Positions 46,870-58,333 of a stretch of DNA of 64,000 nt are shown piece after piece. Made by a program: the position numbers and the translations under genes. This DNA comes from a bacterium (GTDB taxonomy: Bacteria; Electryoneota; JAOADG01), in the NCBI GenBank assembly GCA_963681965.1, contig OY820579.1, forward strand, positions 416,001 to 480,000, read 5' to 3'. The number at the start of each line of letters is the position of its first letter. Positions within the stretch are counted from its first letter, which is position 1. Below the pieces are notes generated by a model. That model saw only the letters and a list, made by a program, of their open reading frames with translations, had not been told where the DNA came from and ran no database searches.

Positions 46870-47241
46870 TTCAATCCTCTCGGTATCCTCAGCAAGCGCC
46901 TTAAGATACAGCGATTCCCGCTCTCGTCAAAATCGGCAAAAAGTTTCCAATTATTAATCACTTTCCCAGAGGTTCCGCGATGAGTTTGAGTTAACCAATG
47001 TACCATTGAGCTACTGATTCGAACTCGCTTTACGAGGTGTGATTTGTGAACAATGAAATAAGAATATTATCGCAATTCATTACTTCATAATGTATTAAGG
47101 ATGTTAGAAGCGAAACCACCGGCATGATAAATCAACCGAAGAGATGAATTAATTGTAGGGTAGTGAGTTACTCAGCTACCTTTTCATACATCGCAATTCC
47201 GTTTCTTCACCTTCTTCCTCATACTAGATGGAGTGAGCCAA

Positions 47242-48432
47242 ATGAATAGATTGTTCTTTACTAGCGCTTGTGTCCTCATTTTTCTCTCCATGGTGCTGCC
47301 CGTTTTTGCTCAGGATAGTGCCTATGTATCCACTCAATCCCGCTTGGCAACCCAAAATAATGGTGCACTTGCCGTAGCGATATCCAACAATATTGCAGTG
47401 TTAGCCAGTGGATCTTATGGATTGAAAACGATCGATATTTCCAATCCAACCATACCGGTTCAAGTTGGCAATTTGACACTTGCCGGTCTAGCACGTAAAG
47501 TATATCTGGTTGACACGCTCGCGTATATTGCCGCTAGTGCAAGCGGATTGCGAGTGGTCAATATTGCCCATCCCACATCACCGAGTGAAATTGGATTCGT
47601 GGTTCCACCGAATAATTGTCAGGGAGTGTTTGTTAAAGAGGGTATTGCTTACTTGGCGATGTCGAACGGTATTCGAACCGTTGATGTATCGAATCCCGCC
47701 AATCCCGTACAGCTCGGATATTTGAACACCGGCTCTGCGGCTGATATCTGTGTCGATGGTCAATACGCATATGTCTGTTGTATGCAGAATGGATTGAAAA
47801 TTATCGATGTTCAAAATCCCACTCAGATGCAGCTAGTGAGCACCTACGATACCCCCGGCAATGCCTTTGCAGTGGTCGTTTTCAATAGCTACGCCTTTGT
47901 TGCCGACTATACTTTTGGATTGCAAATCATCGACGTTCACGATCCTCTCCATCCGGCTCTGACCTCTACCTTCGATACCCCCGGTACGGCTGTCGCGCTT
48001 TCCGTGAGCCAGTATAATGTGATTGTCTGCGATTACGATCGCGGTTTCGAGATAATCGATATCTCCGATCTAACGCAACCGATGCAGGTCGGTAATTTTA
48101 ACACACCCGGCTATGCCTATGGTCTGACGGAGTTCAATAATTCGGTATTCGTTGCCGACATCAATGCGTTGGGTATTTACGATGTTTCCGCAGCATCCAA
48201 CGTCCAAACCCCCGGTAGTGTTTCCATTAGTATCTCAGAATCCAGCACAAGTTCGGAATTAGTTTGGAATGCTACCCCGAATATTATCAGAGGGTATAAA
48301 ATCTACTCATCCAACAACGCTTACTTTACTCCGAACGCTTCAAATTTATTTTCAACTGTTCCAACCTCGACCACATCGCTAGTCGTTCCGACCAGTGGAT
48401 CCAGTTACTATCGAATTGCCGCCTACCGATAA
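47242..48432 (+). CDS. Secreted LVIVD-repeat protein
   Basis: Signal peptide; ~7 repeats of AYVA....GL.IIDVS.P..P..VG..TPG.A. Confidence 0.88.
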   Translation: MNRLFFTSACVLIFLSMVLPVFAQDSAYVSTQSRLATQNNGALAVAISNNIAVLASGSYGLKTIDISNPTIPVQVGNLTLAGLARKVYLVDTLAYIAASASGLRVVNIAHPTSPSEIGFVVPPNNCQGVFVKEGIAYLAMSNGIRTVDVSNPANPVQLGYLNTGSAADICVDGQYAYVCCMQNGLKIIDVQNPTQMQLVSTYDTPGNAFAVVVFNSYAFVADYTFGLQIIDVHDPLHPALTSTFDTPGTAVALSVSQYNVIVCDYDRGFEIIDISDLTQPMQVGNFNTPGYAYGLTEFNNSVFVADINALGIYDVSAASNVQTPGSVSISISESSTSSELVWNATPNIIRGYKIYSSNNAYFTPNASNLFSTVPTSTTSLVVPTSGSSYYRIAAYR

Positions 48433-48497
48433 ATGAATTTCGCAATTTGATTTGTTGCGGTGAGTAGATCAGTATTTCTACGGAGCATTCTAAAGCG

Positions 48498-48522
48498 AAA
48501 AAGGCAGCCAGATGGCTGCCTT
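48498..48522 (-). terminator. Intrinsic terminator
   Basis: AAGGCAGCCA-ga-TGGCTGCCTT with A run on the + strand. Confidence 0.7.
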
Positions 48523-48548
48523 ATCGTTATGATATCTGAGTGCTCACG

Positions 48549-50561
48549 TTACTTGAGCAATACTGCTTTGCGGGTTGCAACCGCCTTCGGGGTTGTCATT
48601 GTGACGAAATAGATACCCGACGCAACTCGCAAACCGTTGCGATCCGATCCATTCCAATTCACTTCGAATTTACCTGCCTCGAAGTTTCGATCCGCCAAAG
48701 TAACGATTTCGCGTCCATTCGCATCGAAAACGGAAATATTCGCGTGACTTGCTTCCGACAGTTCAAATCGGATCAGCGACGATGCATTGAAGGGATTCGG
48801 ATACACCGGCAACAAATTGATCGTTTGCGGTAGTTTCACCGCCGGGTTAGACTGAATTTGCGCATCACTGCCCATCATCAATTCGTTAAACTCTGCCAAT
48901 CGACGAATATTGGCTTGATTGCGTGCCGCCTCGGATTGAACCCCGACCTTCATAGTCGACGGTCGCAGCACTTGCGATACATCGATATCGTAAGCTACCC
49001 GCAACGAGTCGCGATGACGAGCGTGGCGCAAGATTTGATTGCGAATTCGGTCGGCTTGTGCAAACTCATTTTCGGCATCGTAACCGTAAGACGCCGAGAA
49101 TCGCGATGCCTGTTGCAAATCTTGACCGACTTCGGGCAAATCTTCGGGATTGATTTTGGATAATTGTTTCAATGAATAAACCGCTTCCGAGGTCGAGTCG
49201 CCGGATTCTTCGATTGCCAGCGAATAGGTTGCCACGGCACTGGAAACCATACCGTTTGCGGCATAAGCACTCGCAACCATCGCAGTACCACCGGTTTCCA
49301 AAGCATAGCTTCCAAGCTGAGCACCGCAATTGGTTCCGGTGCTCTGGGTGCCGATTTGCCACAACACTGGATCGGCAGGAATAAAGTGAGAGATCGATGC
49401 ACCGTTGGCAAATTGATTCAATTTGAGATAATGAGTCACTGGTTTTGCCGATGCCTCTTGCATATAGATGTCGCTTGAAGTTGCCAGATGGAAGGTATTT
49501 TCACCATACAGGAAATAGGGAGCAGCTTCATTGATGTAAACGATTGGATGACCTTGGATTCCGAAAAACTCGTTGCCACCGACTTTGCTGTTGGCAATGT
49601 CGAAAAATGCCGGTGCGGCATTACCGCTTAGATTCAGTGCGTAGGGATGATTGTCTTCAAACCGATTGCAGAGAAATACCGGATCGCAGGCATACCCAAC
49701 AAAAGCGCCTAAATTCGTGTTGTGACCATTATGCATGAATACGCATTCTTCAATTTGACCAGTGTTTGGTCCAGGATAGTCATGCGACCACCGAATCGCG
49801 CAGTCGCCGGCATATTCCATTGAATTACCCTTAAGGTGCGGGCTGCTATAAAGAATATCGAATTCGGAAGTCCAGTCGATCAAATCGGAATAATCGGTTT
49901 TGAGCGTATCGCACGATTCCATTTTGATCGCAGTACCCACGCCATAGCCTTCAAACGAGCAGTATTCAATCGTGCCCTTTAATACTTTATACAGGTCGAT
50001 TGCCGATTCGGTCGGTCCGACAAATTGATTGTTTGCTAGATACAAAAAGCAGTTCGCCGAACCATTCGAGCAAGCTTTAATGTGATTCGTTCCCTCGAGG
50101 AAATAGGAATTCGTGATGGAAATCGTGTCACAGTAACTGGCAATTTTCACAGAATAGGTATTACTGGAGAATTCTACCGAGTCTAGAATGACTTTACCGT
50201 CATTGACATACAGTGCAATCGGGAGACTCTGGAAAACAACATGTTTACCAGTCACCTTGCCGGTAGGATTCACTTCGATCGCTGACCATCCGGTTGGCAT
50301 TGTTCCACTTTTGACGAACGTTGTTACATCAGTCGATAAGGAATTCGACTTTCGACCTTCAAACAGAAGCGTTGCGCCAGCAGAAACGACAAAATGTCCG
50401 GTGTTGGAAAAAACATAGCGTGTAGCCACAGGTATAGAATACACTGTATTCTGTGGGATGACTACCGGTTGCGAAATCGTGATAACTGTTTCAGCCATCG
50501 CTACCATCGCAGAAAGACTAAGAATTGCGATAATTAGTAATGGTAAACGGTTTCTAAGCAT
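48549..50561 (-). CDS. Secreted right-handed beta-helix protein with FlgD-Ig/PNPFN C-terminal domain
   Basis: GGAGG RBS; signal peptide; beta-helix-like repeats; YPNPFN...WNG.D..G..VASGIYF...KAVLLK. Confidence 0.8.
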   Translation of the reverse strand: MLRNRLPLLIIAILSLSAMVAMAETVITISQPVVIPQNTVYSIPVATRYVFSNTGHFVVSAGATLLFEGRKSNSLSTDVTTFVKSGTMPTGWSAIEVNPTGKVTGKHVVFQSLPIALYVNDGKVILDSVEFSSNTYSVKIASYCDTISITNSYFLEGTNHIKACSNGSANCFLYLANNQFVGPTESAIDLYKVLKGTIEYCSFEGYGVGTAIKMESCDTLKTDYSDLIDWTSEFDILYSSPHLKGNSMEYAGDCAIRWSHDYPGPNTGQIEECVFMHNGHNTNLGAFVGYACDPVFLCNRFEDNHPYALNLSGNAAPAFFDIANSKVGGNEFFGIQGHPIVYINEAAPYFLYGENTFHLATSSDIYMQEASAKPVTHYLKLNQFANGASISHFIPADPVLWQIGTQSTGTNCGAQLGSYALETGGTAMVASAYAANGMVSSAVATYSLAIEESGDSTSEAVYSLKQLSKINPEDLPEVGQDLQQASRFSASYGYDAENEFAQADRIRNQILRHARHRDSLRVAYDIDVSQVLRPSTMKVGVQSEAARNQANIRRLAEFNELMMGSDAQIQSNPAVKLPQTINLLPVYPNPFNASSLIRFELSEASHANISVFDANGREIVTLADRNFEAGKFEVNWNGSDRNGLRVASGIYFVTMTTPKAVATRKAVLLK

Positions 50562-51212
50562 GACATACCTCCCAATAGAAATAAATCAAGTCCCACCAAA
50601 ATATTCTACCAACAATTATCGTGTTAAACAGAATCTCGATTCATCGATCATTGTCAGGGCTTGATGTAATATGAACTAGATTGAAGTTTTCTTCTAGTTG
50701 AAAAACATTTTCAAACATCCGACCGCTTTAAGAAATAACGGGATCAGAGATTTCAAGATGATTCAATCAATTGTCTACTCGTACATCCACTCGAATGAAA
50801 AGTCGGTGCAACTGATTATTTGATAAAAGCGGTTTAATATAACATAAAAACTATTTTAACAAAAATTGTATCGCAATGTCTATACAAAGGTCGTGTTAAA
50901 ACTCGTAAAAAGTCAACTCTTTACAAAATATTTTGTGTTTTTTAGCAGAGGAACCAAGTGCTAATCTTTTGTATCTCTAGAATATTCTTAGAAATTTACT
51001 TGCAGGATTTTGGATTGATTGCTTTTACTCTGGGAGTTTCACGGGCAGTCAAAACAACGAAAGTGAAGAAAAACAGATTAATGGGTGCTGAGTTGAACAG
51101 AATAACCCCATCACTGGAGTGAAACATTTTTTAACAGTTGATAATTTTTATTGTTTTTTAACAACATAAAAATTGATGGTATGAATTAATAAATCTTGTG
51201 TGCAAGATCACA

Positions 51213-53450
51213 CTACATTAGTACCCAGCTAATGAGGAGTACGACACTCAGACCTATCGCAGTGAACTCCATACCGAATAATGGAACGATGAAAATTGCA
51301 CTGATCCAGCACGCGAGTAGGCTTCCAAAGGCATCGGCAGCAAAAATTCTTCCCCCACTTTTATTCGAGCCCAACAACTGATTGCAATATCCAAACAAGC
51401 CTCCGACCGATATTCCAACAATTATTAAACTTGTACAAATGACTCCAAAACTACTTCCAAACTCAAACCACCGATCAATGAGGGTAATGCAAACCGTCAA
51501 CAGAAAAACCGTAAAGAGATTTCTCGAACTGATCCATCGTTTCATCCCGTGATTTTGTGCGACATTTTTATGAAGCAAACTAACGTTTCCAAACCGATGA
51601 AATAAGATCGCTCCAACCGCCATACCAACCATGAATAACACCATTAACCAACCCAAGTCGCGGTATAGCACACCATTCGTCGATTGGTAGCGGTACAACA
51701 AAACGGTTTCGATCGTCATTCCACAAAACCCGACTAGTATCATTAATACGATTGGGCGGAATCTCGACTTGCGAATTCTCATTGCGATAGCAAGTCCAAT
51801 AATGAGTACCGCAATCAGTGAACAATAACCGGAAATAGTATCAATCTCTTTAAAATTCCAACGATCAGACAACAATGTGTTGGGATAAAATTTCGACAAC
51901 CAGATCAACTGAGTATTAAACACAGTTGCAGAGAGTGCATCTCGATTGATTTCTGTCTTCGAAGCTGTGAGTAATTGTTCGACAGTTCCTATTCGGTCGG
52001 TTTGAAACCGGTAGCGGATATATTCGGGAATCACCAGGTGCGGGTGTAACCTTCGGTGTTCGAACCGCGCGATGAGAGATTCGGCATCCCGACTAAGTTC
52101 CGTTTGCGATGCAACGACGATACTGGTTGCATCGGGTAAGAGCACCACCGATTTGAAAGCACTCCTCAATGCCGCGATAATTCCACCAGTTCGCAACGTT
52201 AACGCTTTCGTCCAGTAGTTTTCCGCCGATTGAAAGCGGAAAGCAACAATTCCTCCCGGCGAAAGATGTCGATTGACAAGATCAAAGAATTCTTTCGTGT
52301 AAAATCGATTATTTTGAATCGTCGATGGTTCTGGCATATCGATCAGGATCGCATCGAAGCGACTCGTGTGCTGCAAGTAGTTGCGGAGATCGTCGACGAC
52401 AAACTCTACCGATGGATATGAATTCGAATTCAAGTTGACCAAGTTCTTTTTGCGATGCAATAATTGAAAAGCGGTGTTGTCCAATTCGCAACAAACAACC
52501 TGTATAGGATGGTGTTGCAGGATTTCTTCAATTGCACCATTGATACTGCTCCCCAACAGCAAAACCGATTGCGGATTGGGGTGTTGTAAGAGTGAAAGAT
52601 GAACCAATTCTTCAATCGAATGCCCTTCAGATTCGTAGGCAAGTGCATCATTCTCATAGACGACAATTTGTTGCTCGCGACTGGTAATGATTACTCTTCC
52701 GTACGGGGTGTCTTTTAAACCAATTAAAGTCGGATGATTCCATTTTGTGGATGCCCAATCAATTTTTCCCGACCACGGTATCACCCCTAAACCAACGATC
52801 AACATCAAAATGGATACATATTCGCGGAATGAGTGTTGCCAAGTCTCATTGTTTCTCCGAAAAATCGAACCACAGAATTGAATAATAATTGGTGTAAGGG
52901 CAATGAAAGCAGTGACAATGATTGCGGTAAAATTGGGGATCGACCAAATCAGTATCAGTACGGAAAGAAACGCACCAAATGCCGCACCGAAACACTCTAA
53001 TCCATACGCAAGCGCGACACTACGATTGGATTGTAACAATCGATTTGCACTGATCTGAAAGATCCGACCGGAAAAAAATCCCAGCGGAAATAGTGTAGTC
53101 ATCATCTCGAATAAGAGAAATGGAGGGGATATATAAGCGCCTGCAGTTGCACCAATTACAATGCGGAAACCACGTATAAGAACAGTACTAGTTGGTAATA
53201 CTAAGGAAAACAAAATCCATAAACTATCGACATTTGTTCGATTGCGGTTTATCTTAAGTTCGCCAATCCACGATCCACAAGCGGTTCCCAGTAACCAGAA
53301 GCCAATTCCCAGAATGTAGAGTAATTCAATTCCCAGCGAGGTCGCAATCAATTCACGCAATATCAGTACTTGTCCGAATTGCGAAACGATACCCACAACG
53401 ATGAGGTTTAACGAAGGATGAATTCCTGTTGGATCACGACTCATTGTCAT
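51213..53450 (-). CDS. Fused MFS-like membrane protein / spermidine-synthase-like SAM-binding domain
   Basis: ~7 TM + soluble domain (TPYG, EELVH, VLLLG, ELD, DDLR.YL, FDAILID.P.P, NRFYT.EFF) + ~7 TM. Confidence 0.8.
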   Translation of the reverse strand: MTMSRDPTGIHPSLNLIVVGIVSQFGQVLILRELIATSLGIELLYILGIGFWLLGTACGSWIGELKINRNRTNVDSLWILFSLVLPTSTVLIRGFRIVIGATAGAYISPPFLLFEMMTTLFPLGFFSGRIFQISANRLLQSNRSVALAYGLECFGAAFGAFLSVLILIWSIPNFTAIIVTAFIALTPIIIQFCGSIFRRNNETWQHSFREYVSILMLIVGLGVIPWSGKIDWASTKWNHPTLIGLKDTPYGRVIITSREQQIVVYENDALAYESEGHSIEELVHLSLLQHPNPQSVLLLGSSINGAIEEILQHHPIQVVCCELDNTAFQLLHRKKNLVNLNSNSYPSVEFVVDDLRNYLQHTSRFDAILIDMPEPSTIQNNRFYTKEFFDLVNRHLSPGGIVAFRFQSAENYWTKALTLRTGGIIAALRSAFKSVVLLPDATSIVVASQTELSRDAESLIARFEHRRLHPHLVIPEYIRYRFQTDRIGTVEQLLTASKTEINRDALSATVFNTQLIWLSKFYPNTLLSDRWNFKEIDTISGYCSLIAVLIIGLAIAMRIRKSRFRPIVLMILVGFCGMTIETVLLYRYQSTNGVLYRDLGWLMVLFMVGMAVGAILFHRFGNVSLLHKNVAQNHGMKRWISSRNLFTVFLLTVCITLIDRWFEFGSSFGVICTSLIIVGISVGGLFGYCNQLLGSNKSGGRIFAADAFGSLLACWISAIFIVPLFGMEFTAIGLSVVLLISWVLM

Positions 53451-53459
53451 TGACTTTTA

Positions 53460-54992
53460 CTACTTCAATTCGTGCTCGGAAAATACGACTGCTTGGAAGG
53501 TTAAAAATTCCGCCTTCGATTTCCAGGCATCACGTGGTAACCCGGCTTTTAAACAGAGATTATCCAGCAACTCAGTTCGAGACCAATTTTGCTCGGTAGC
53601 GACTTGAGGAAGAAATACCGCCGATCGACCATCTTTTCGAATTACGACACCATCGCGACCTATGACAATGGCATCGGTACTAGCGATCGGTTTGATCGGG
53701 GTTAATACCGATATTTCCACCTCAATTGACGATAGCTCATCGCTGGTTACCGGATCGAACCGGCGATCTTCGAATGCGGCTGCCAACGCCATTTGACCAA
53801 CTGTATTCATTAATGGTTGATCTTCGGACATGTGACCGATACAACCACACAGTTCACCTTTTTTCTTCAGTGTTACAAAAGCACCTTCGTTTATATTTAA
53901 AGCTGCGGAGGAGGATCGATTCAATGGTGTCGTCGAACTTGATAGATACCACTCAATCGATTTTCGGGCATGATTAAGCAACCATCGTTTCTCTACCTCT
54001 GTTAATTGCGTATTGGATGAAGCAGTCAACTGATCATCATGACATTTAAACCAAGATGTATCTATTTTAGAGCCTTGACCCAACACGATTGCACCATACC
54101 CAACCACTCGATTTCGATCGCCGACCGAACAGTCACCGGAATTGGCATACGAAATCACACGACTACCCGGTATTCCGACTGACAGAGCAGCATACATCGC
54201 AGTTAAAATCGGTGCTTCGCCGCAAGCGCAAGTCTCGAGATTATGAAAGCGATCAAGTTCGGATTGCGTACATGCCGTTTTCAATCGGCCTGGATTTATT
54301 GTTGCAATTGCTTTCACGGTTTCGCGATCGACCGAATTCGCCGTTTCGTAATCCGGATAATGAGATAGATCGGAACTTGCGACAATGAGTAAGTCGTATT
54401 GTTTGGACAAATTTGCAAGCGCTTGTCCAAGATGCTCGCACATTCGGGAATCCGGTTCTCCCACAACAATCGGAAGGATTTTGGCGGTAGGGAATAGCGT
54501 TTGCACAAAGGGGAGTTGTACTTCGATCGAGTGTTCACGCTCGTGAACCATCGTCTCGGAGCTGAAAGATTGATCCGAAGACAATAGTCGATTCGCGGCA
54601 GTTTCATCGATTCGGACTTTCCCTAACGGAGTTTCGAAGGTTCCTCGGGGAAAGATCGAAACGCCCGAAAAACCCGCGATCGTATGATTGGTACCGAGTA
54701 ATACTATTAGATTGTATTTGTAGTTTTTCGTTTGAGCGAAGGCATCGGCGGCGATTTGCCCACTAAAAATGAATCCGGCATGAGGGACGACAATCGCGAA
54801 CGGTTTTTGTGAATTGATCGGTTCGGCATTTTCGAGGTAGCGGTTGACTGCGAGTTTTAGTGCAACGGGATCGTCAGGATAGAATTTTCCCGCTACGGCG
54901 GGTCGTCGATTGATATCCTCTTTTCCTGCCGCATGACAACCCGTTAACAGGATCGACAGAAGCAGCAGTATGATTACTCGATTGGTCCGCAT
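53460..54992 (-). CDS. amrB: AmmeMemoRadiSam protein B (Memo) fused to protein A (AMMECR1); predicted lipoprotein
   Basis: RRPAVAG.FYP, PHAG, EHSIEVQLPF, SSDLSHY; GAFVTL....LCGCIG, FEDRRF, EISVL, FLPQV; N-terminal lipobox LTGC. Confidence 0.9.
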   Translation of the reverse strand: MRTNRVIILLLLSILLTGCHAAGKEDINRRPAVAGKFYPDDPVALKLAVNRYLENAEPINSQKPFAIVVPHAGFIFSGQIAADAFAQTKNYKYNLIVLLGTNHTIAGFSGVSIFPRGTFETPLGKVRIDETAANRLLSSDQSFSSETMVHEREHSIEVQLPFVQTLFPTAKILPIVVGEPDSRMCEHLGQALANLSKQYDLLIVASSDLSHYPDYETANSVDRETVKAIATINPGRLKTACTQSELDRFHNLETCACGEAPILTAMYAALSVGIPGSRVISYANSGDCSVGDRNRVVGYGAIVLGQGSKIDTSWFKCHDDQLTASSNTQLTEVEKRWLLNHARKSIEWYLSSSTTPLNRSSSAALNINEGAFVTLKKKGELCGCIGHMSEDQPLMNTVGQMALAAAFEDRRFDPVTSDELSSIEVEISVLTPIKPIASTDAIVIGRDGVVIRKDGRSAVFLPQVATEQNWSRTELLDNLCLKAGLPRDAWKSKAEFLTFQAVVFSEHELK

Positions 54993-55017
54993 GGCAAATT
55001 TCCCTGAATAGAAAGTA

Positions 55018-56274
55018 TTAACTCCAAATTCCAGCAATCGGTTCACGACAATACTCACACTTCCCATCCTTCATCTGCATCGATTGTACAAAGAACCCTT
55101 CCCGACTAATCACCTTTTTATGGCAACTGGGACAATATGTGTGATTCCCTTCGCTACCGGGTACGTTTCCAACATAGACATAGTGCAATCCGCTATTCAT
55201 TGCTTTTTCGCGTGCACGTTCCAGTGTCGCAACCGGTGTCGGAGGAAGATTGAGTAATTGATAGTCAGGATGAAAGCGGGTGAAATGCAGTGGAACATCG
55301 ACACCAATTTCGCCGACGAGCCAGTCGATTAAATTGGTAAGCATCGCATCGGAATCATTTAACGTCGGTACAACTAAATTTACGATTTCGAGATGTGTCC
55401 GCGATTTTGCGATCTGTTTGATCGATTTCAAAACCGGTGCCAATTCTGCCGAACAGACAGTTCGATAAAAGTCGGGACTGAACCCTTTTAAATCGATTTT
55501 AATTGCATCCAATACCGAGCACAATTCCGTTAACGGTTCGGGATTCATAAATCCGCAACTGATCATTACCGTCCGCAGTTGCTGATTTCGGGCTGCCCGC
55601 GCGATGTCGGTCAGATATTCGATAAAGACCGTTGGTTCATTGTAAGTAAAAGCGATTATGGGAGTGTTATTTTCATTCGCACTCGATACAATCGTATTGG
55701 GAACCGTATAGTTGGCACTGTACTCTTCGGGGGATATTTGCGAGATTTCCCAATTTTGACAAAACTTACACTGCAACGGACATCCGGAAGTTGCCAGTGA
55801 ATACGCCAACGATCCTGGCAAAAAATGATAAAATGGTTTCTTTTCGATCGGATCGGTGTGAATCGCAATCGGACGTCCATACACTAATGATCGCAGCTCC
55901 CCATTTCGGTTGATTCGGGTTCGGCAGCGACCGCGCTCTCCCTCATTAATTCTACAGTTTTGGGCACAGAGCAGGCATTTTATCTGATTCTTTCGATGGT
56001 GGTGCTGGGCTTCTTGCAAATCCTCCTCAGCACCATGACAATCGAGACAGTGCCCTGTTGCGGAATTCGCGCCGATCCAATACCGTGCAAGTGGTGCTGC
56101 TTGCGCAAGAAGATCCAAGCGGTTGGCAGCAAATGCTTGATCCGCTTTGGTTAAGAGTGATGTAAGCCAACCAAACTGCGACAACAATAAGTAAGTGCTC
56201 GCTGCAGAAATCCCCGTCTTTCCGGTTTGTTTTAAAAATTCCCGTCGAGGTAGCAGATCATTAGAAGGTGTCAT
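55018..56274 (-). CDS. amrS: AmmeMemoRadiSam radical SAM enzyme with twin-arginine signal
   Basis: C..C...C......G.C, DPIEKKP.YHF.PG, CPLQCKFCQNW (CxxxCxxC), FTYNEP, HFTRFHP, YVGNV, T.CP.C; N-terminal PRREFLK. Confidence 0.93.
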   Translation of the reverse strand: MTPSNDLLPRREFLKQTGKTGISAASTYLLLSQFGWLTSLLTKADQAFAANRLDLLAQAAPLARYWIGANSATGHCLDCHGAEEDLQEAQHHHRKNQIKCLLCAQNCRINEGERGRCRTRINRNGELRSLVYGRPIAIHTDPIEKKPFYHFLPGSLAYSLATSGCPLQCKFCQNWEISQISPEEYSANYTVPNTIVSSANENNTPIIAFTYNEPTVFIEYLTDIARAARNQQLRTVMISCGFMNPEPLTELCSVLDAIKIDLKGFSPDFYRTVCSAELAPVLKSIKQIAKSRTHLEIVNLVVPTLNDSDAMLTNLIDWLVGEIGVDVPLHFTRFHPDYQLLNLPPTPVATLERAREKAMNSGLHYVYVGNVPGSEGNHTYCPSCHKKVISREGFFVQSMQMKDGKCEYCREPIAGIWS

Positions 56275-56588
56275 TTCGAATCACCTTCCCCACAATCGTG
56301 ATTTTCAAAAAGCTCGACGATTGTCGCACCCCAACTCGATCCGTCGGGTGCGAGATAAAATTCACGAATCTGGGGTAGTTTCCGTAAAATTGCGTGAACG
56401 CGTTCTCGCAGTGCACCCGTTCCTTTACCGTGAATGATTCGAACGGTTAATATGTCGCGCGATTGACATTGAAGAAGATATTCGGGGATAAGAAGCTTGA
56501 CATCTTGTGGGTGGAAGGTGTGTAAATCGAGGACACCGTCGATCGGTACCTCGAAAATCGCATCGGACTGTTCTTCGTCACTGGTCAT
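56271..56588 (-). CDS. Smr/MutS2 C-terminal domain protein
   Basis: LDLHTF, IIHGKGTG.LR, WGAT.V; stop overlaps the amrS start. Confidence 0.9.
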   Translation of the reverse strand: MTSDEEQSDAIFEVPIDGVLDLHTFHPQDVKLLIPEYLLQCQSRDILTVRIIHGKGTGALRERVHAILRKLPQIREFYLAPDGSSWGATIVELFENHDCGEGDSK

Positions 56589-57448: not shown

Positions 57449-58333
57449 TTATCGTTGAACCGGGATATAGATATCGATCTCGGTTTCGTCGTTGTCAACC
57501 CCTTTGAAGCGCTCATCGTAATATTCAAAATCGATTTTACCGATCGTCTTCAATTCCGATTTCGGAAACCATGTTCCATAAATATAATCGTACGATTTCA
57601 TCAATCGATCGGGGAAAAAACGTCCTTTGTGGGTGAATACTGCATATTCCTGTGCCGGAACTTGCCGATGAACCATCCCTTGGGGAATTTTGTCGACTTT
57701 AGACACCGGTACCGACACCACCGCAGTAAATGGTGAGTCGTCATCGGCAGTTTTCGGATCGAATGGTTCATTCATCATACACAATCCATAACAGATTTTT
57801 TTTCCGATTTTGTGTTGTACTTCGTGTGCTCGGGGTAGAAACTGCTCCCACAAATCTGGGATAATATTATTGTTCTTCGTTGAGACCCCTTCGATTCCGA
57901 CCACATCGAACGCGTCTTTTTTCACGAATCGCGGTTCGTGACTGATACCGTCAAATAAGTGCATAATCATTTCTCCAGTTAGTTGTTTTTTATCGAATAT
58001 TGGCATCACTTGTCGATTTTTTCGGTATTGACTCGGTGTCATACCGTAAACCGACTTAAATGCGCGGGTAAATGCCTCATGGGATTCAAAGCCAAAATCG
58101 AGTGCAATCCCAAGAATTTGTTGTTTTGTGGTTAGCAGAATATTTGCTGCCTCGGTCAATCTTCGACGACGGAGATAATCACCAGGGGTCGTACCGACAA
58201 TTGCGTAAAAGATGCGGTAAAAATGATAAAGGGATACTCCAGCGGTTCCAACGGCTGTAGTTAAGACATTCCGATCTAAAAGATGTTGTTCGCAATAATC
58301 AACTACGAGTTGGATCCGCTCGACACCAGTCAT
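57449..58333 (-). CDS. AraC/Rob-type regulator with GyrI-like effector domain
   Basis: S.YHF.R.F...G.T...Y.RRRRLT.AA; GFESHEAFTRAFK..YG.TP..YR; YAVF.H.G, IY..W, DFE.YD, IYIP. Confidence 0.93.
   Translation of the reverse strand: MTGVERIQLVVDYCEQHLLDRNVLTTAVGTAGVSLYHFYRIFYAIVGTTPGDYLRRRRLTEAANILLTTKQQILGIALDFGFESHEAFTRAFKSVYGMTPSQYRKNRQVMPIFDKKQLTGEMIMHLFDGISHEPRFVKKDAFDVVGIEGVSTKNNNIIPDLWEQFLPRAHEVQHKIGKKICYGLCMMNEPFDPKTADDDSPFTAVVSVPVSKVDKIPQGMVHRQVPAQEYAVFTHKGRFFPDRLMKSYDYIYGTWFPKSELKTIGKIDFEYYDERFKGVDNDETEIDIYIPVQR

Follow-up and report, generated by a model that had tools for sequence, protein, structure and literature searches.

In the stretch of DNA analysed here (64,000 nucleotides of contig OY820579.1, assembly GCA_963681965.1, positions 416,001 to 480,000 of the forward strand, from a bacterium of the phylum Electryoneota; hereafter the window) a gene cluster was identified which probably encodes an exported form of the AmmeMemoRadiSam system, the set composed of the radical S-adenosylmethionine (SAM) enzyme AmrS and the proteins Memo (AmrB) and AMMECR1 (AmrA). 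We reach this reading because three proteins bear three kinds of signal which all point to the same side of the membrane, and because these signals persist across phyla and the cytoplasmic paralogues lack them. The third of these proteins is a membrane partner with a predicted outward domain of spermidine synthase (SpeE) fold, and we favour, tentatively, the explanation that this partner handles the adenosyl cosubstrate of the exported enzyme.

The cluster comprises four open reading frames (ORFs) placed head to tail on the minus strand between positions 51213 and 56588 of the window, which encode an Smr-domain protein, AmrS, a fusion of Memo and AMMECR1 (gene amrBA) and the membrane protein. 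The stop codon of the Smr gene and the start codon of amrS share the sequence ATGA (an overlap of 4 nucleotides), the likely amrBA start, ATG 54992, is found 25 nucleotides beyond the amrS stop at 55018 with AGGGAAA upstream of it, and the amrBA stop is separated from the start of the membrane protein gene by 9 nucleotides. The amrBA frame is open up to position 55067, and since a start there would overlap amrS by 50 nucleotides we consider the start at 54992 more likely. The tight operon of the original prediction, which had been made from the sequence of the window, is therefore confirmed with its overlap of 4 and gaps of 25 and 9 nucleotides. Its first gene is a partial exception, as Smr is indeed present at the head of the operon and coupled to amrS by the ATGA, but is not part of the conserved cassette: Smr was considered as a component of the system and was rejected, none of the 159 other loci described below (79 and 80) having an Smr match. 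The conserved unit is three genes, and Smr is here a local addition.

AmrS scores 369.7 bits against TIGR04337 (cut-off 220), the model beginning at residue 91, and a search of the window's genome found it to be the only AmrS there. When 30 relatives were aligned, the cysteines of its CX3CX2C cluster motif (C165, C169 and C172) showed no variation. The fusion scores 254.6 bits against TIGR04336 (cut-off 26) and 176.3 bits against TIGR04335 (cut-off 99), and PHAG and SSDLSH (Memo) and CGCIG (AMMECR1), which we take to be the defining motifs of the two proteins, can be read in its sequence. It holds the only Memo and the only AMMECR1 of the genome, which has the exported set only, with one AmrS, one Memo and one AMMECR1. 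All three models of the canonical AmmeMemoRadiSam system (TIGR04335 for AmrA, TIGR04336 for AmrB and TIGR04337 for AmrS) are thus matched above their cut-offs by adjacent genes with the CX3CX2C motif intact. Unlike the canonical system, the one in the window has export signals on every part and a fourth, membrane component, and its AmrS differs from the canonical one in an N-terminal extension of 90 residues which holds a leader of the twin-arginine translocation (Tat) type and a CxxCH insert.

The N-terminus of AmrS reads MTPSNDLLPRREFLK and is followed by 23 uncharged residues (mean hydropathy 0.92) and then by AFA. The PRREFLK at residues 9-15 corresponds to the twin-arginine consensus (S/T)-R-R-x-F-L-K. 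By a simplified rule, the hydrophobic region (h-region) of a Tat signal is moderately hydrophobic and uncharged and is followed by a small-x-small cleavage site. The 120 closest AmrS relatives have approximately 410-430 residues and 59-66% identity over 92-100% of the query, and their source names include Calditrichota, KSB1, Latescibacteria, Deltaproteobacteria and Syntrophus. Within their first 40 residues 115 of them have RRx[hydrophobic][hydrophobic]; of the five without this motif, four seem to begin within the leader and one has KR. RR is found within the first 35 residues in 116/120, and an uncharged stretch of at least 13 residues directly after RR in 104/120. R10 and R11 are also invariant in the 30 aligned relatives. 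The Tat-type signal that had been proposed for AmrS is therefore upheld by the motif, the h-region, the AFA and the conservation in 115 of the 120 relatives. That the true start could lie downstream of it had been raised as well; the leader is kept as protein in relatives of many phyla, which indicates that it is translated, and the upstream start of amrS is fixed by the ATGA overlap with Smr. The window's genome encodes the Tat machinery, with a TatC that scores 221.7 bits.

The fusion, translated from ATG 54992, starts with MRTNRVIILLLLSILLTGC, in which a charged and then hydrophobic leader is followed by a match to the lipobox. The consensus of this box is [LVI][ASTVI][GAS]C. The lipobox, another element of the original prediction, is kept with either start of the gene (54992 or 55067).

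For the membrane protein AlphaFold2 gave a confident model (predicted local distance difference test score, pLDDT, 89; predicted template modelling score, pTM, 0.91) in which an alpha/beta domain separates seven helices, all before residue 236, from six or seven that come after residue 538. The two bundles, N- and C-terminal, were found by hhalign to be homologous (probability 96%, E 4.5e-9), as had been suspected from the two related transmembrane bundles seen in the translation. The only Pfam match of the protein is to spermine/spermidine synthase (PF01564, residues 280-413, 65.1 bits), and Foldseek searches of the PDB with the whole membrane protein returned SpeE structures only. The wide search with VIA-align, for which the noise level with helical models is around 13-14, placed transporters of the major facilitator superfamily (MFS) across model residues 5-745, with 330-350 residues aligned at a root-mean-square deviation (rmsd) of 3.4-3.9 and Z scores of 25.3 for VMAT2, 24.8 for VAChT, 23.7 for SotB, 22.6 for OxlT and 22.6 for NorA. 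According to the model, the protein has an MFS core of twelve helices, with helix 7, a domain of 310 residues and helix 8 where the central loop would otherwise be. With MFS transporters of the DHA1/vesicular amine type (VMAT2, VAChT, SotB, NorA) it shares the fold over both bundles, the two-fold repeat and conserved embedded acidic residues; it differs from them in that two extra helices and the 310-residue domain replace the central cytoplasmic loop, and in that the likeness in sequence is only marginal, Pfam MFS_1 being matched at E up to 0.1 by 2 of 43 aligned relatives and not by the window's protein.

These 43 relatives have 24-36% identity to the query and about 720 residues. With helix boundaries taken from the family-averaged hydropathy, their mean number of Lys and Arg is 1.9-3.9 in loops 2, 4, 6, 8, 10 and 12 and 0-0.65 in loops 1, 3, 5, 9, 11 and 13. 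By the positive-inside rule the N-terminus is predicted to be inside, as it is in MFS transporters, and loop 7, which is the SpeE-fold domain, to be outside. The original prediction had counted about seven transmembrane segments before this domain and placed it outside on that ground; as a prediction this stands, given the loop charges, the helix count and an MFS fold with two extra helices. Conservation is complete or at least 90% at five acidic residues embedded in the membrane (E33, E42, E152, E581 and D706), which fits with a cationic cargo. The best NCBIfam match of the protein is PRK03612, a family of membrane-anchored SpeE-like proteins of about 520 amino acids in which the SpeE fold likewise comes after a helical N-terminal region (120.6 bits, residues 140-421). 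The score is under the cut-off of 472, and the window's protein has a second bundle that completes the MFS fold. We know of no characterised function for PRK03612 proteins. Shorter membrane SpeE-like paralogues with open frames of 526 and 546 residues, which cover profile positions 28-437, were seen in two genomes of the phylum (G048:C9:8055-9299 and G051:C94:7928-9109) that hold the full 14-helix form as well.

The domain carried by loop 7 is, judging from profile and fold comparisons, homologous to SpeE beyond doubt. The family profile matches the Thermus polyamine aminopropyltransferase (PDB 1uir) with E 1.4e-37, and VIA-align superposes 284 residues on the same structure with Z 25.9 and rmsd 3.2. 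With SpeE (PF01564; Thermus thermophilus 1uir/3anx) it shares the fold, the ribose-binding Glu and the adenine-binding Asp; in the family the GGG of the adenosyl site is kept in 40-42 of the 43 sequences, E322 (ribose) in 41/43 and D354 (adenine) in 43/43, the acidic residue of the glycine loop being shifted by one position in the relatives with respect to GGG(D/E)G. It differs from SpeE in being inserted in a membrane protein, in being predicted to face outward and in the loss, in most of the family, of the catalytic Asp and Tyr. Two residues are required for aminopropyl transfer in SpeE, the Tyr in YHE and the Asp that opens D-(S/T)-x-D-P. The position of this Tyr is occupied by Ala in 31/43 relatives and by Ile in the window's copy, and the Asp that opens D-x-x-D-P is present in 7/43 relatives; the window's copy does have it. 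Position 374 is acidic in 40/43. Membership of the enzyme family is accordingly doubtful, and we do not class the domain as a spermidine synthase: it is below every NCBIfam SpeE cut-off (120.6 bits against 472 for PRK03612, 71.4 against 249.55 for TIGR00417 and 68.8 against 260 for PRK00811), the transfer residues are mostly lost in the family, and the window's copy has GSS in its glycine loop. A separate, ordinary soluble SpeE and a SpeD are encoded elsewhere in the window's genome.

Modelling of the complex had been suggested as a check, and one complex was modelled, formed by mature AmrS (residues 51-418) and the outward domain (residues 228-537). The domain was placed on AmrS with interface scores (ipSAE) of 0.92, 0.92 and 0.91, whereas the highest score among three controls was 0.00; at least 88% of the contacts recur between runs and the partner pLDDT is at least 84. 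Of 157 solved complexes 116 attain this mark, as do 2 of 215 mismatched pairs, a comparison that is rough since custom alignments were used. On the side of AmrS the interface (136-142, 161, 173-177, 211, 336-350, 371-373 and 392-395) corresponds to the mouth of the active site, built from the DPIEKKP loop, the residues just past CX3CX2C and the TYNEP motif. The domain contributes residues 256-277, 409-417, 471-486 and 520-521, with the tightest contacts at N411 and Y412, and each of the interface residues E410, N411, W413, Y477, Y480, D485 and R486 is shared by 33-40 of the 43 relatives. The model supports docking of the domain on the mouth of the AmrS active site, and such docking would fit with a role in the supply or removal of the cosubstrate.

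The distribution of the genes was followed in three surveys. In the first, an AmrS alignment was used to scan one genome per species, which gave 79 loci with DNA of up to 9 kb on each side, often less, and the N-termini were classed by eye from stop-to-stop translations. The AmrS leader is Tat-like in 41 loci, Sec-, lipoprotein- or anchor-like in 15 and missing in 23. The membrane gene is found within 9 kb in 22/41 Tat-like loci, in 7/15 of the second class and in 2/23 signal-less loci; these last two (L034 and L043) have Memo-AMMECR1 fusions with a lipobox and AmrS frames that are cut short N-terminally. The Memo-AMMECR1 partner has a signal peptide or a lipobox in most of the signal-bearing loci, and has no signal in the signal-less loci L058, L071 and L074. 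In L058 a single frame of 815 residues (L058:8950-11394) fuses AmrS, Memo and AMMECR1 without a leader, and this cytoplasmic triple fusion argues that the three proteins act as one unit. In L067 and L070, where the membrane gene is adjacent and AmrS bears a Tat leader, AMMECR1 is a separate protein that lacks a signal; it may be exported by hitch-hiking or may be cytoplasmic. Leaders of Sec type or lipoprotein type were observed on AmrS in the Omnitrophota and in some other lineages (L015, L024, L030, L033, L049, L052 and others), L033 having LVTC.

The second survey used the membrane protein alignment to scan metagenomes and gave 80 loci. An Amr gene is present in 58 of them, usually in the order amrS, amrBA, membrane gene on one strand, and where at least 3.5 kb is available on both sides of the membrane gene, 21/26 loci hold Amr genes. 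The adjoining AmrS has an intact N-terminus in 44 cases; a script classed 40 of these as Tat-like, and the other four are two RR leaders recognised by eye (L138 and L159), one hydrophobic leader and one apparently truncated sequence.

The third survey covered 79 genomes of the phylum, the window's own included, in which the membrane protein was called full-length at E of at most 1e-100 and AmrS was called long at the same threshold with an open frame of at least 370 residues. The membrane protein is present in 36 genomes and the long AmrS in 34: both were found in 33, the long AmrS alone in 1, the membrane gene alone in 3 and neither in 42. The membrane gene thus occurs in 33/34 genomes with the long AmrS as against 3/45 without it. 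The genome with the long AmrS alone (G076) is 77% complete, and the three with the membrane gene alone (G004, G046 and G051) each have a partial AmrS match. The RR leader is present in 20/20 long AmrS copies of the phylum and in 0/20 short copies, which have no extension at all, and none of 12 short AmrS loci has Memo, AMMECR1 or a SpeE-like or membrane gene within 5 kb. As had been expected, the presence of the AmrS signal thus correlates with that of the membrane gene.

Many genomes of the phylum were seen to hold two AmrS paralogues, the long one in the cassette and a lone short one of 330-350 amino acids without the extension, and since both types coexist in many genomes they are not redundant. 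The three genomes nearest to the window's genome, of the same genus and family (G042, G043 and G044), have neither AmrS nor the membrane gene, whereas both are present in most of the phylum's more remote families. This patchy distribution suggests loss or transfer.

Between the leader and the canonical N-terminus of AmrS there is an insert of about 30 residues with the pattern ARYW-x6-10-CxxCH-x8-14-HxH. Its C76, C79 and H80 are invariant in the 30 aligned relatives and H93 is at least 90% conserved. CxxCH is present in 120/120 closest relatives and in 15/20 long-type copies of the phylum, and is confined to the closest clade. CxxCH, which lies here in a stretch that would be extracytoplasmic, is the heme-attachment motif of c-type cytochromes, and going by this pattern the insert might be a c-type heme site, a possibility to which we give some weight though we would not expect it; it could equally be another metal site. 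No Pfam family matched AmrS residues 1-97, and therefore no cytochrome family matched the insert, and AlphaFold2 leaves the insert at pLDDT 55-61, so that the model decides neither for heme nor for another metal. A cytochrome c assembly gene is present in the window's genome and likewise in 79/79 genomes of the phylum, which makes its presence uninformative for the CxxCH clade. In locus L107 a small cytochrome c gene (PF00034, L107:9154-9588) was seen on the same strand 42 nucleotides 3' of the membrane gene, and its product is a candidate electron donor; such a gene stands beside the cassette in this one of the 24 loci with scanned flanks.

Radical SAM enzymes need an iron-sulfur (Fe-S) cluster, SAM and a low-potential reductant. 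In the explanation that we favour, AmrS would fold and gain its Fe-S cluster in the cytoplasm and then cross the membrane via Tat, and the Memo-AMMECR1 fusion would leave the cytoplasm as a lipoprotein. The membrane protein would be an MFS transporter with two extra helices and an outward SpeE-fold domain in place of the central loop, and this domain would sit on the mouth of the AmrS active site. The membrane protein would give the exported enzyme what the cytoplasm gives to ordinary radical SAM enzymes: its MFS part could move SAM out, or 5'-deoxyadenosine and methionine back in, or both, while the adenosyl-binding domain could keep the compound beside AmrS and prevent its loss from the periplasm. 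In the clade with the CxxCH insert, this insert might be the point of electron entry. The actual export, the transport of SAM and 5'-deoxyadenosine, the electron route, the substrate and the chemistry outside are reasoned here rather than computed. The original prediction had proposed radical SAM chemistry on an envelope substrate outside the cytoplasm, with the membrane protein supplying SAM or clearing by-products, an interpretation that the results support in part. A transporter fold of cation/amine type, buried acidic residues, an adenosyl domain without the transfer residues and its docking on AmrS would fit with a module that brings SAM out, takes by-products back or does both, and keeps them beside the enzyme. 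The strongest argument is that no SpeE-like partner, soluble or otherwise, was found beside the signal-less AmmeMemoRadiSam systems in the loci examined, which places the partner outside the core chemistry and suggests that it is needed only outside the cytoplasm, where SAM, a means of clearing 5'-deoxyadenosine and a reductant would be lacking. The complete scheme, in which many anaerobic bacteria would carry out radical SAM catalysis beyond the cytoplasmic membrane by means of a Tat-exported AmrS, a lipoprotein Memo-AMMECR1, a docking MFS/SpeE-fold shuttle for SAM and 5'-deoxyadenosine and, in the clade with the CxxCH insert, a single c-type heme in this insert that takes electrons from the periplasmic redox pool, is speculative, and we regard it as doubtful in its entirety.

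Several observations weigh against this reading. The TAT-signal profiles TIGR01409 (NCBIfam) and PF10518 (Pfam) gave no match to AmrS residues 1-97 at E up to 10, in a search whose HMMER filters drop most weak matches to short profiles, and the case for the leader therefore lies in its conservation. The AmrS leaders of Sec or lipoprotein type are hard to reconcile with loading of the Fe-S cluster in the cytoplasm, since an Fe-S enzyme exported by Sec would need its cluster to be inserted outside, and a low-potential electron source in the periplasm was not identified. The membrane gene is missing from the DNA examined in 27/56 loci with a signal-bearing AmrS, many of them on short contigs, and 5/26 well-flanked membrane-gene loci (L121, L126, L133, L134 and L135) have no Amr gene nearby. 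Kin are not independent and the co-occurrence counts overstate the statistics for this reason, which is why they are given without a P-value. The window's own copy of the domain has GSSING, that is, GSS in place of GGG, which is found in only 1-2 of the 43 sequences, its own included, and this makes SAM binding by this copy less certain. In the modelled complex, the AmrS interface is no more conserved than the remaining core (17/32 against 153/296 positions) and no more specific to the long type (8/32 against 69/296), and conservation of the domain interface is weakly enriched (20/33 against 107/277 at 60%, P 0.02), without significance at 75% or 85%. The adenosyl-binding residues (300-302, 322 and 354) are absent from the predicted interface, so that the model gives no direct pocket for a hand-over.

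Among the other explanations, the one that survives best accepts the export and makes the membrane protein a supplier of the substrate: a cationic amine (a polyamine, for instance, or another envelope precursor) would be carried out by the MFS part, the domain would bind or alkylate it, and AmrS, Memo and AMMECR1 would modify it in juxtaposed clefts. The domain is after all a true homologue of the polyamine aminopropyltransferases by both of the comparisons given above, the nearest MFS structures are amine and cation transporters (VMAT2, VAChT, SotB and NorA, with Z of 22-25) and the genome makes decarboxylated SAM and has an ordinary soluble SpeE. In addition, the interface hairpin 256-277 and the E410-N411-x-W413 loop appear, by mapping of the SpeE motifs, to line the amine end of the cleft, and the acidic position 374 is widely kept. 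This delivery is nevertheless unlikely in our judgement, as the aminopropyl-transfer residues are mostly lost (Asp in 7/43, Tyr replaced by Ala in 31/43), the rank order among MFS folds gives no firm information on the cargo, and the cytoplasmic AmmeMemoRadiSam systems have no SpeE-like partner nearby, which puts the domain outside the core chemistry.

The docking could also be read in another manner, with the outward domain as the protein target or activation partner of AmrS, its E-N-x-W loop entering the active site and being modified there as in the pyruvate formate-lyase activase. In that system the activase receives the target loop of pyruvate formate-lyase. The next-best scores of AmrS are indeed with the pyruvate formate-lyase-activating enzyme and other glycyl-radical activases (TIGR02493 and TIGR02494), its nearest characterised relatives at E 2.6e-15. 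AmrS differs from these in reaching 56 bits where the cut-off is 231.75, in its export leader and in a locus without a glycyl-radical enzyme. In the modelled complex the contacts of least error join N411 and Y412 to AmrS residues 136-139, 161, 174-177 and 211, which belong to the DPIEKKP loop, the residues past CX3CX2C and the TYNEP motif, and E410, N411 and W413 are kept in 39/43, 38/43 and 33/43 relatives. Against this, the model was built without SAM or cluster, and the empty cavity may draw in a loop of the partner; the loop has no conserved Gly or Cys, position 409 being A, S or G and position 412 variable; the signal-less systems have no such target; and the likeness to the binding mode of the pyruvate formate-lyase activase is one of general resemblance and not the outcome of a structural superposition. 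We consider a role as target improbable.

A supply of SAM from the cytoplasm would not be needed at all if AmrS were exported with SAM already bound and used it as a regenerated cofactor, like lysine 2,3-aminomutase, the membrane protein then serving to anchor, to sense or to transport something else. Tat exports folded proteins with bound cofactors, and such an arrangement would remove the problem of supply and most of the problem of the reductant. The 27 signal-bearing loci without the membrane gene in the DNA examined and the 1/34 genomes with the long AmrS alone would agree with it. The other 33 of these 34 genomes have the membrane gene, the exception being the genome that is 77% complete, docking is favoured by the model, and the conserved adenosyl-binding residues of the domain would be left unexplained, so that pre-bound SAM has little in our view to recommend it. 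Lastly, we hold it very improbable that there is no export and that the leaders are mis-called starts, remnant motifs (as the twin-arginine motif is in the cytoplasmic enzyme NarG) or cytoplasmic membrane tethers of a system that is cytoplasmic like its relatives, for although the TAT profile models have no match on the leader and radical SAM enzymes are, to our knowledge, all described as cytoplasmic, the leader is conserved as protein with its RR, uncharged stretch and small-x-small site, three proteins have three kinds of signal for one side of the membrane, the short cytoplasmic paralogues of the phylum lack the extension (0/20) and the upstream start is fixed by the ATGA overlap with Smr.

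The exported system with a membrane partner for the cosubstrate, which remains the explanation that we prefer, can be set beside known cases. Hydrogenase small subunits and Rieske proteins are Tat-exported Fe-S proteins, and they share with AmrS the twin-arginine leader and the cytoplasmic cluster loading that is proposed for it; unlike AmrS, they are neither radical SAM enzymes nor users of a diffusible cosubstrate outside. The SAM transporters of Rickettsia, of Chlamydia and of mitochondria (carriers) perform the job that we propose for the membrane protein, some of them exchanging SAM for a by-product, but the known SAM carriers have other transporter folds and are not known to have a fused SAM-fold domain. 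The work of Burroughs et al. 2019 (J Biol Chem 294:10211) is reportedly the main comparative study of Memo gene contexts. In those portions of the literature that were accessible, including parts of PMC7159879, PMC10924467 and PMC7694686, neither an exported radical SAM enzyme nor this membrane fusion was found to be described, though Burroughs et al. 2019 may bear on it, and we likewise found no functional paper on the AmmeMemoRadiSam system and nothing pertinent on membrane-bound or fused spermidine synthases. The accessible part of the paper on HXS defence describes an effector that is matured by a radical SAM enzyme and acts in the periplasm.

Coordinates of the four genes, of their signals, motifs and inserted domain, and of the hairpin at the end of the operon are collected in the table.

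Table. Features of the cluster, with positions in the window and the basis on which each was assigned.
Feature	Position	Strand	Basis or remark
Smr-domain protein, 105 amino acids, without signal peptide	56271..56588	-	PF01713, 64.2 bits
AmrS, AmmeMemoRadiSam radical SAM enzyme, 418 amino acids, long (predicted exported) type	55018..56274	-	TIGR04337, PF04055
Putative Tat-type leader of AmrS, residues 1-50	56125..56274	-	PRREFLK, 23-residue uncharged h-region, AFA-A
CLDCH (CxxCH) of AmrS, residues 76-80	56035..56049	-	insert of about 30 residues between leader and canonical N-terminus
Radical SAM cluster motif CPLQCKFC (C165, C169, C172)	55759..55782	-	invariant in 30 aligned relatives; PF04055, PF13353
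AmrB/AmrA fusion (Memo and AMMECR1), 510 amino acids from ATG 54992	53460..54992	-	TIGR04336, TIGR04335, PF01875, PF01871
Putative lipoprotein signal MRTNRVIILLLLSILLTGC, lipobox LTGC	54936..54992	-	read in the sequence
Membrane protein, 745 amino acids, modelled 14-helix MFS fold with inserted spermidine-synthase-fold domain	51213..53450	-	AlphaFold2 model, VIA-align
Spermidine-synthase-fold domain, residues 228-537, predicted periplasmic	51840..52769	-	between helices 7 and 8; PF01564
Terminator-like hairpin, weak, spanning the stop codon of the membrane protein gene	51198..51213	-	4 terminator-like sites in the region against 6.5 expected from shuffling

Promoter-like sites in the region were at the level of shuffled sequence (18 found against 16 expected). 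A spacer of 650 bp, AT-rich with a GC content of about 0.36-0.38, was seen after the operon. The neighbouring genes at positions 47233-50561, 50562-51212 and 57449-58333 of the window look unrelated: the first encodes an LVIVD-repeat protein, the second a protein that bears a type IX secretion sorting tail (PF18962) and the third an AraC/GyrI-like regulator. For the flanks of the cassette in general, the two nearest ORFs on each side in 24 cassette loci (90 ORFs out of 132 called) were searched against Pfam, and no recurrent family was found to travel with the cassette, apart from near-identical contigs, so that the flanks give no hint of the substrate.

The AMMECR1/Memo/radical-SAM trio is conserved in part from archaea to humans, and its function is uncharacterised. 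The exported form described here narrows the possible place of the substrate of this trio, and the predicted complex between AmrS and the outward domain offers a concrete interaction that can be tested. If a conserved and widespread exported version with a transporter-like partner of its own is true, radical SAM chemistry would reach the cell envelope, and SAM or a related adenosyl compound would be deliberately carried across the membrane.

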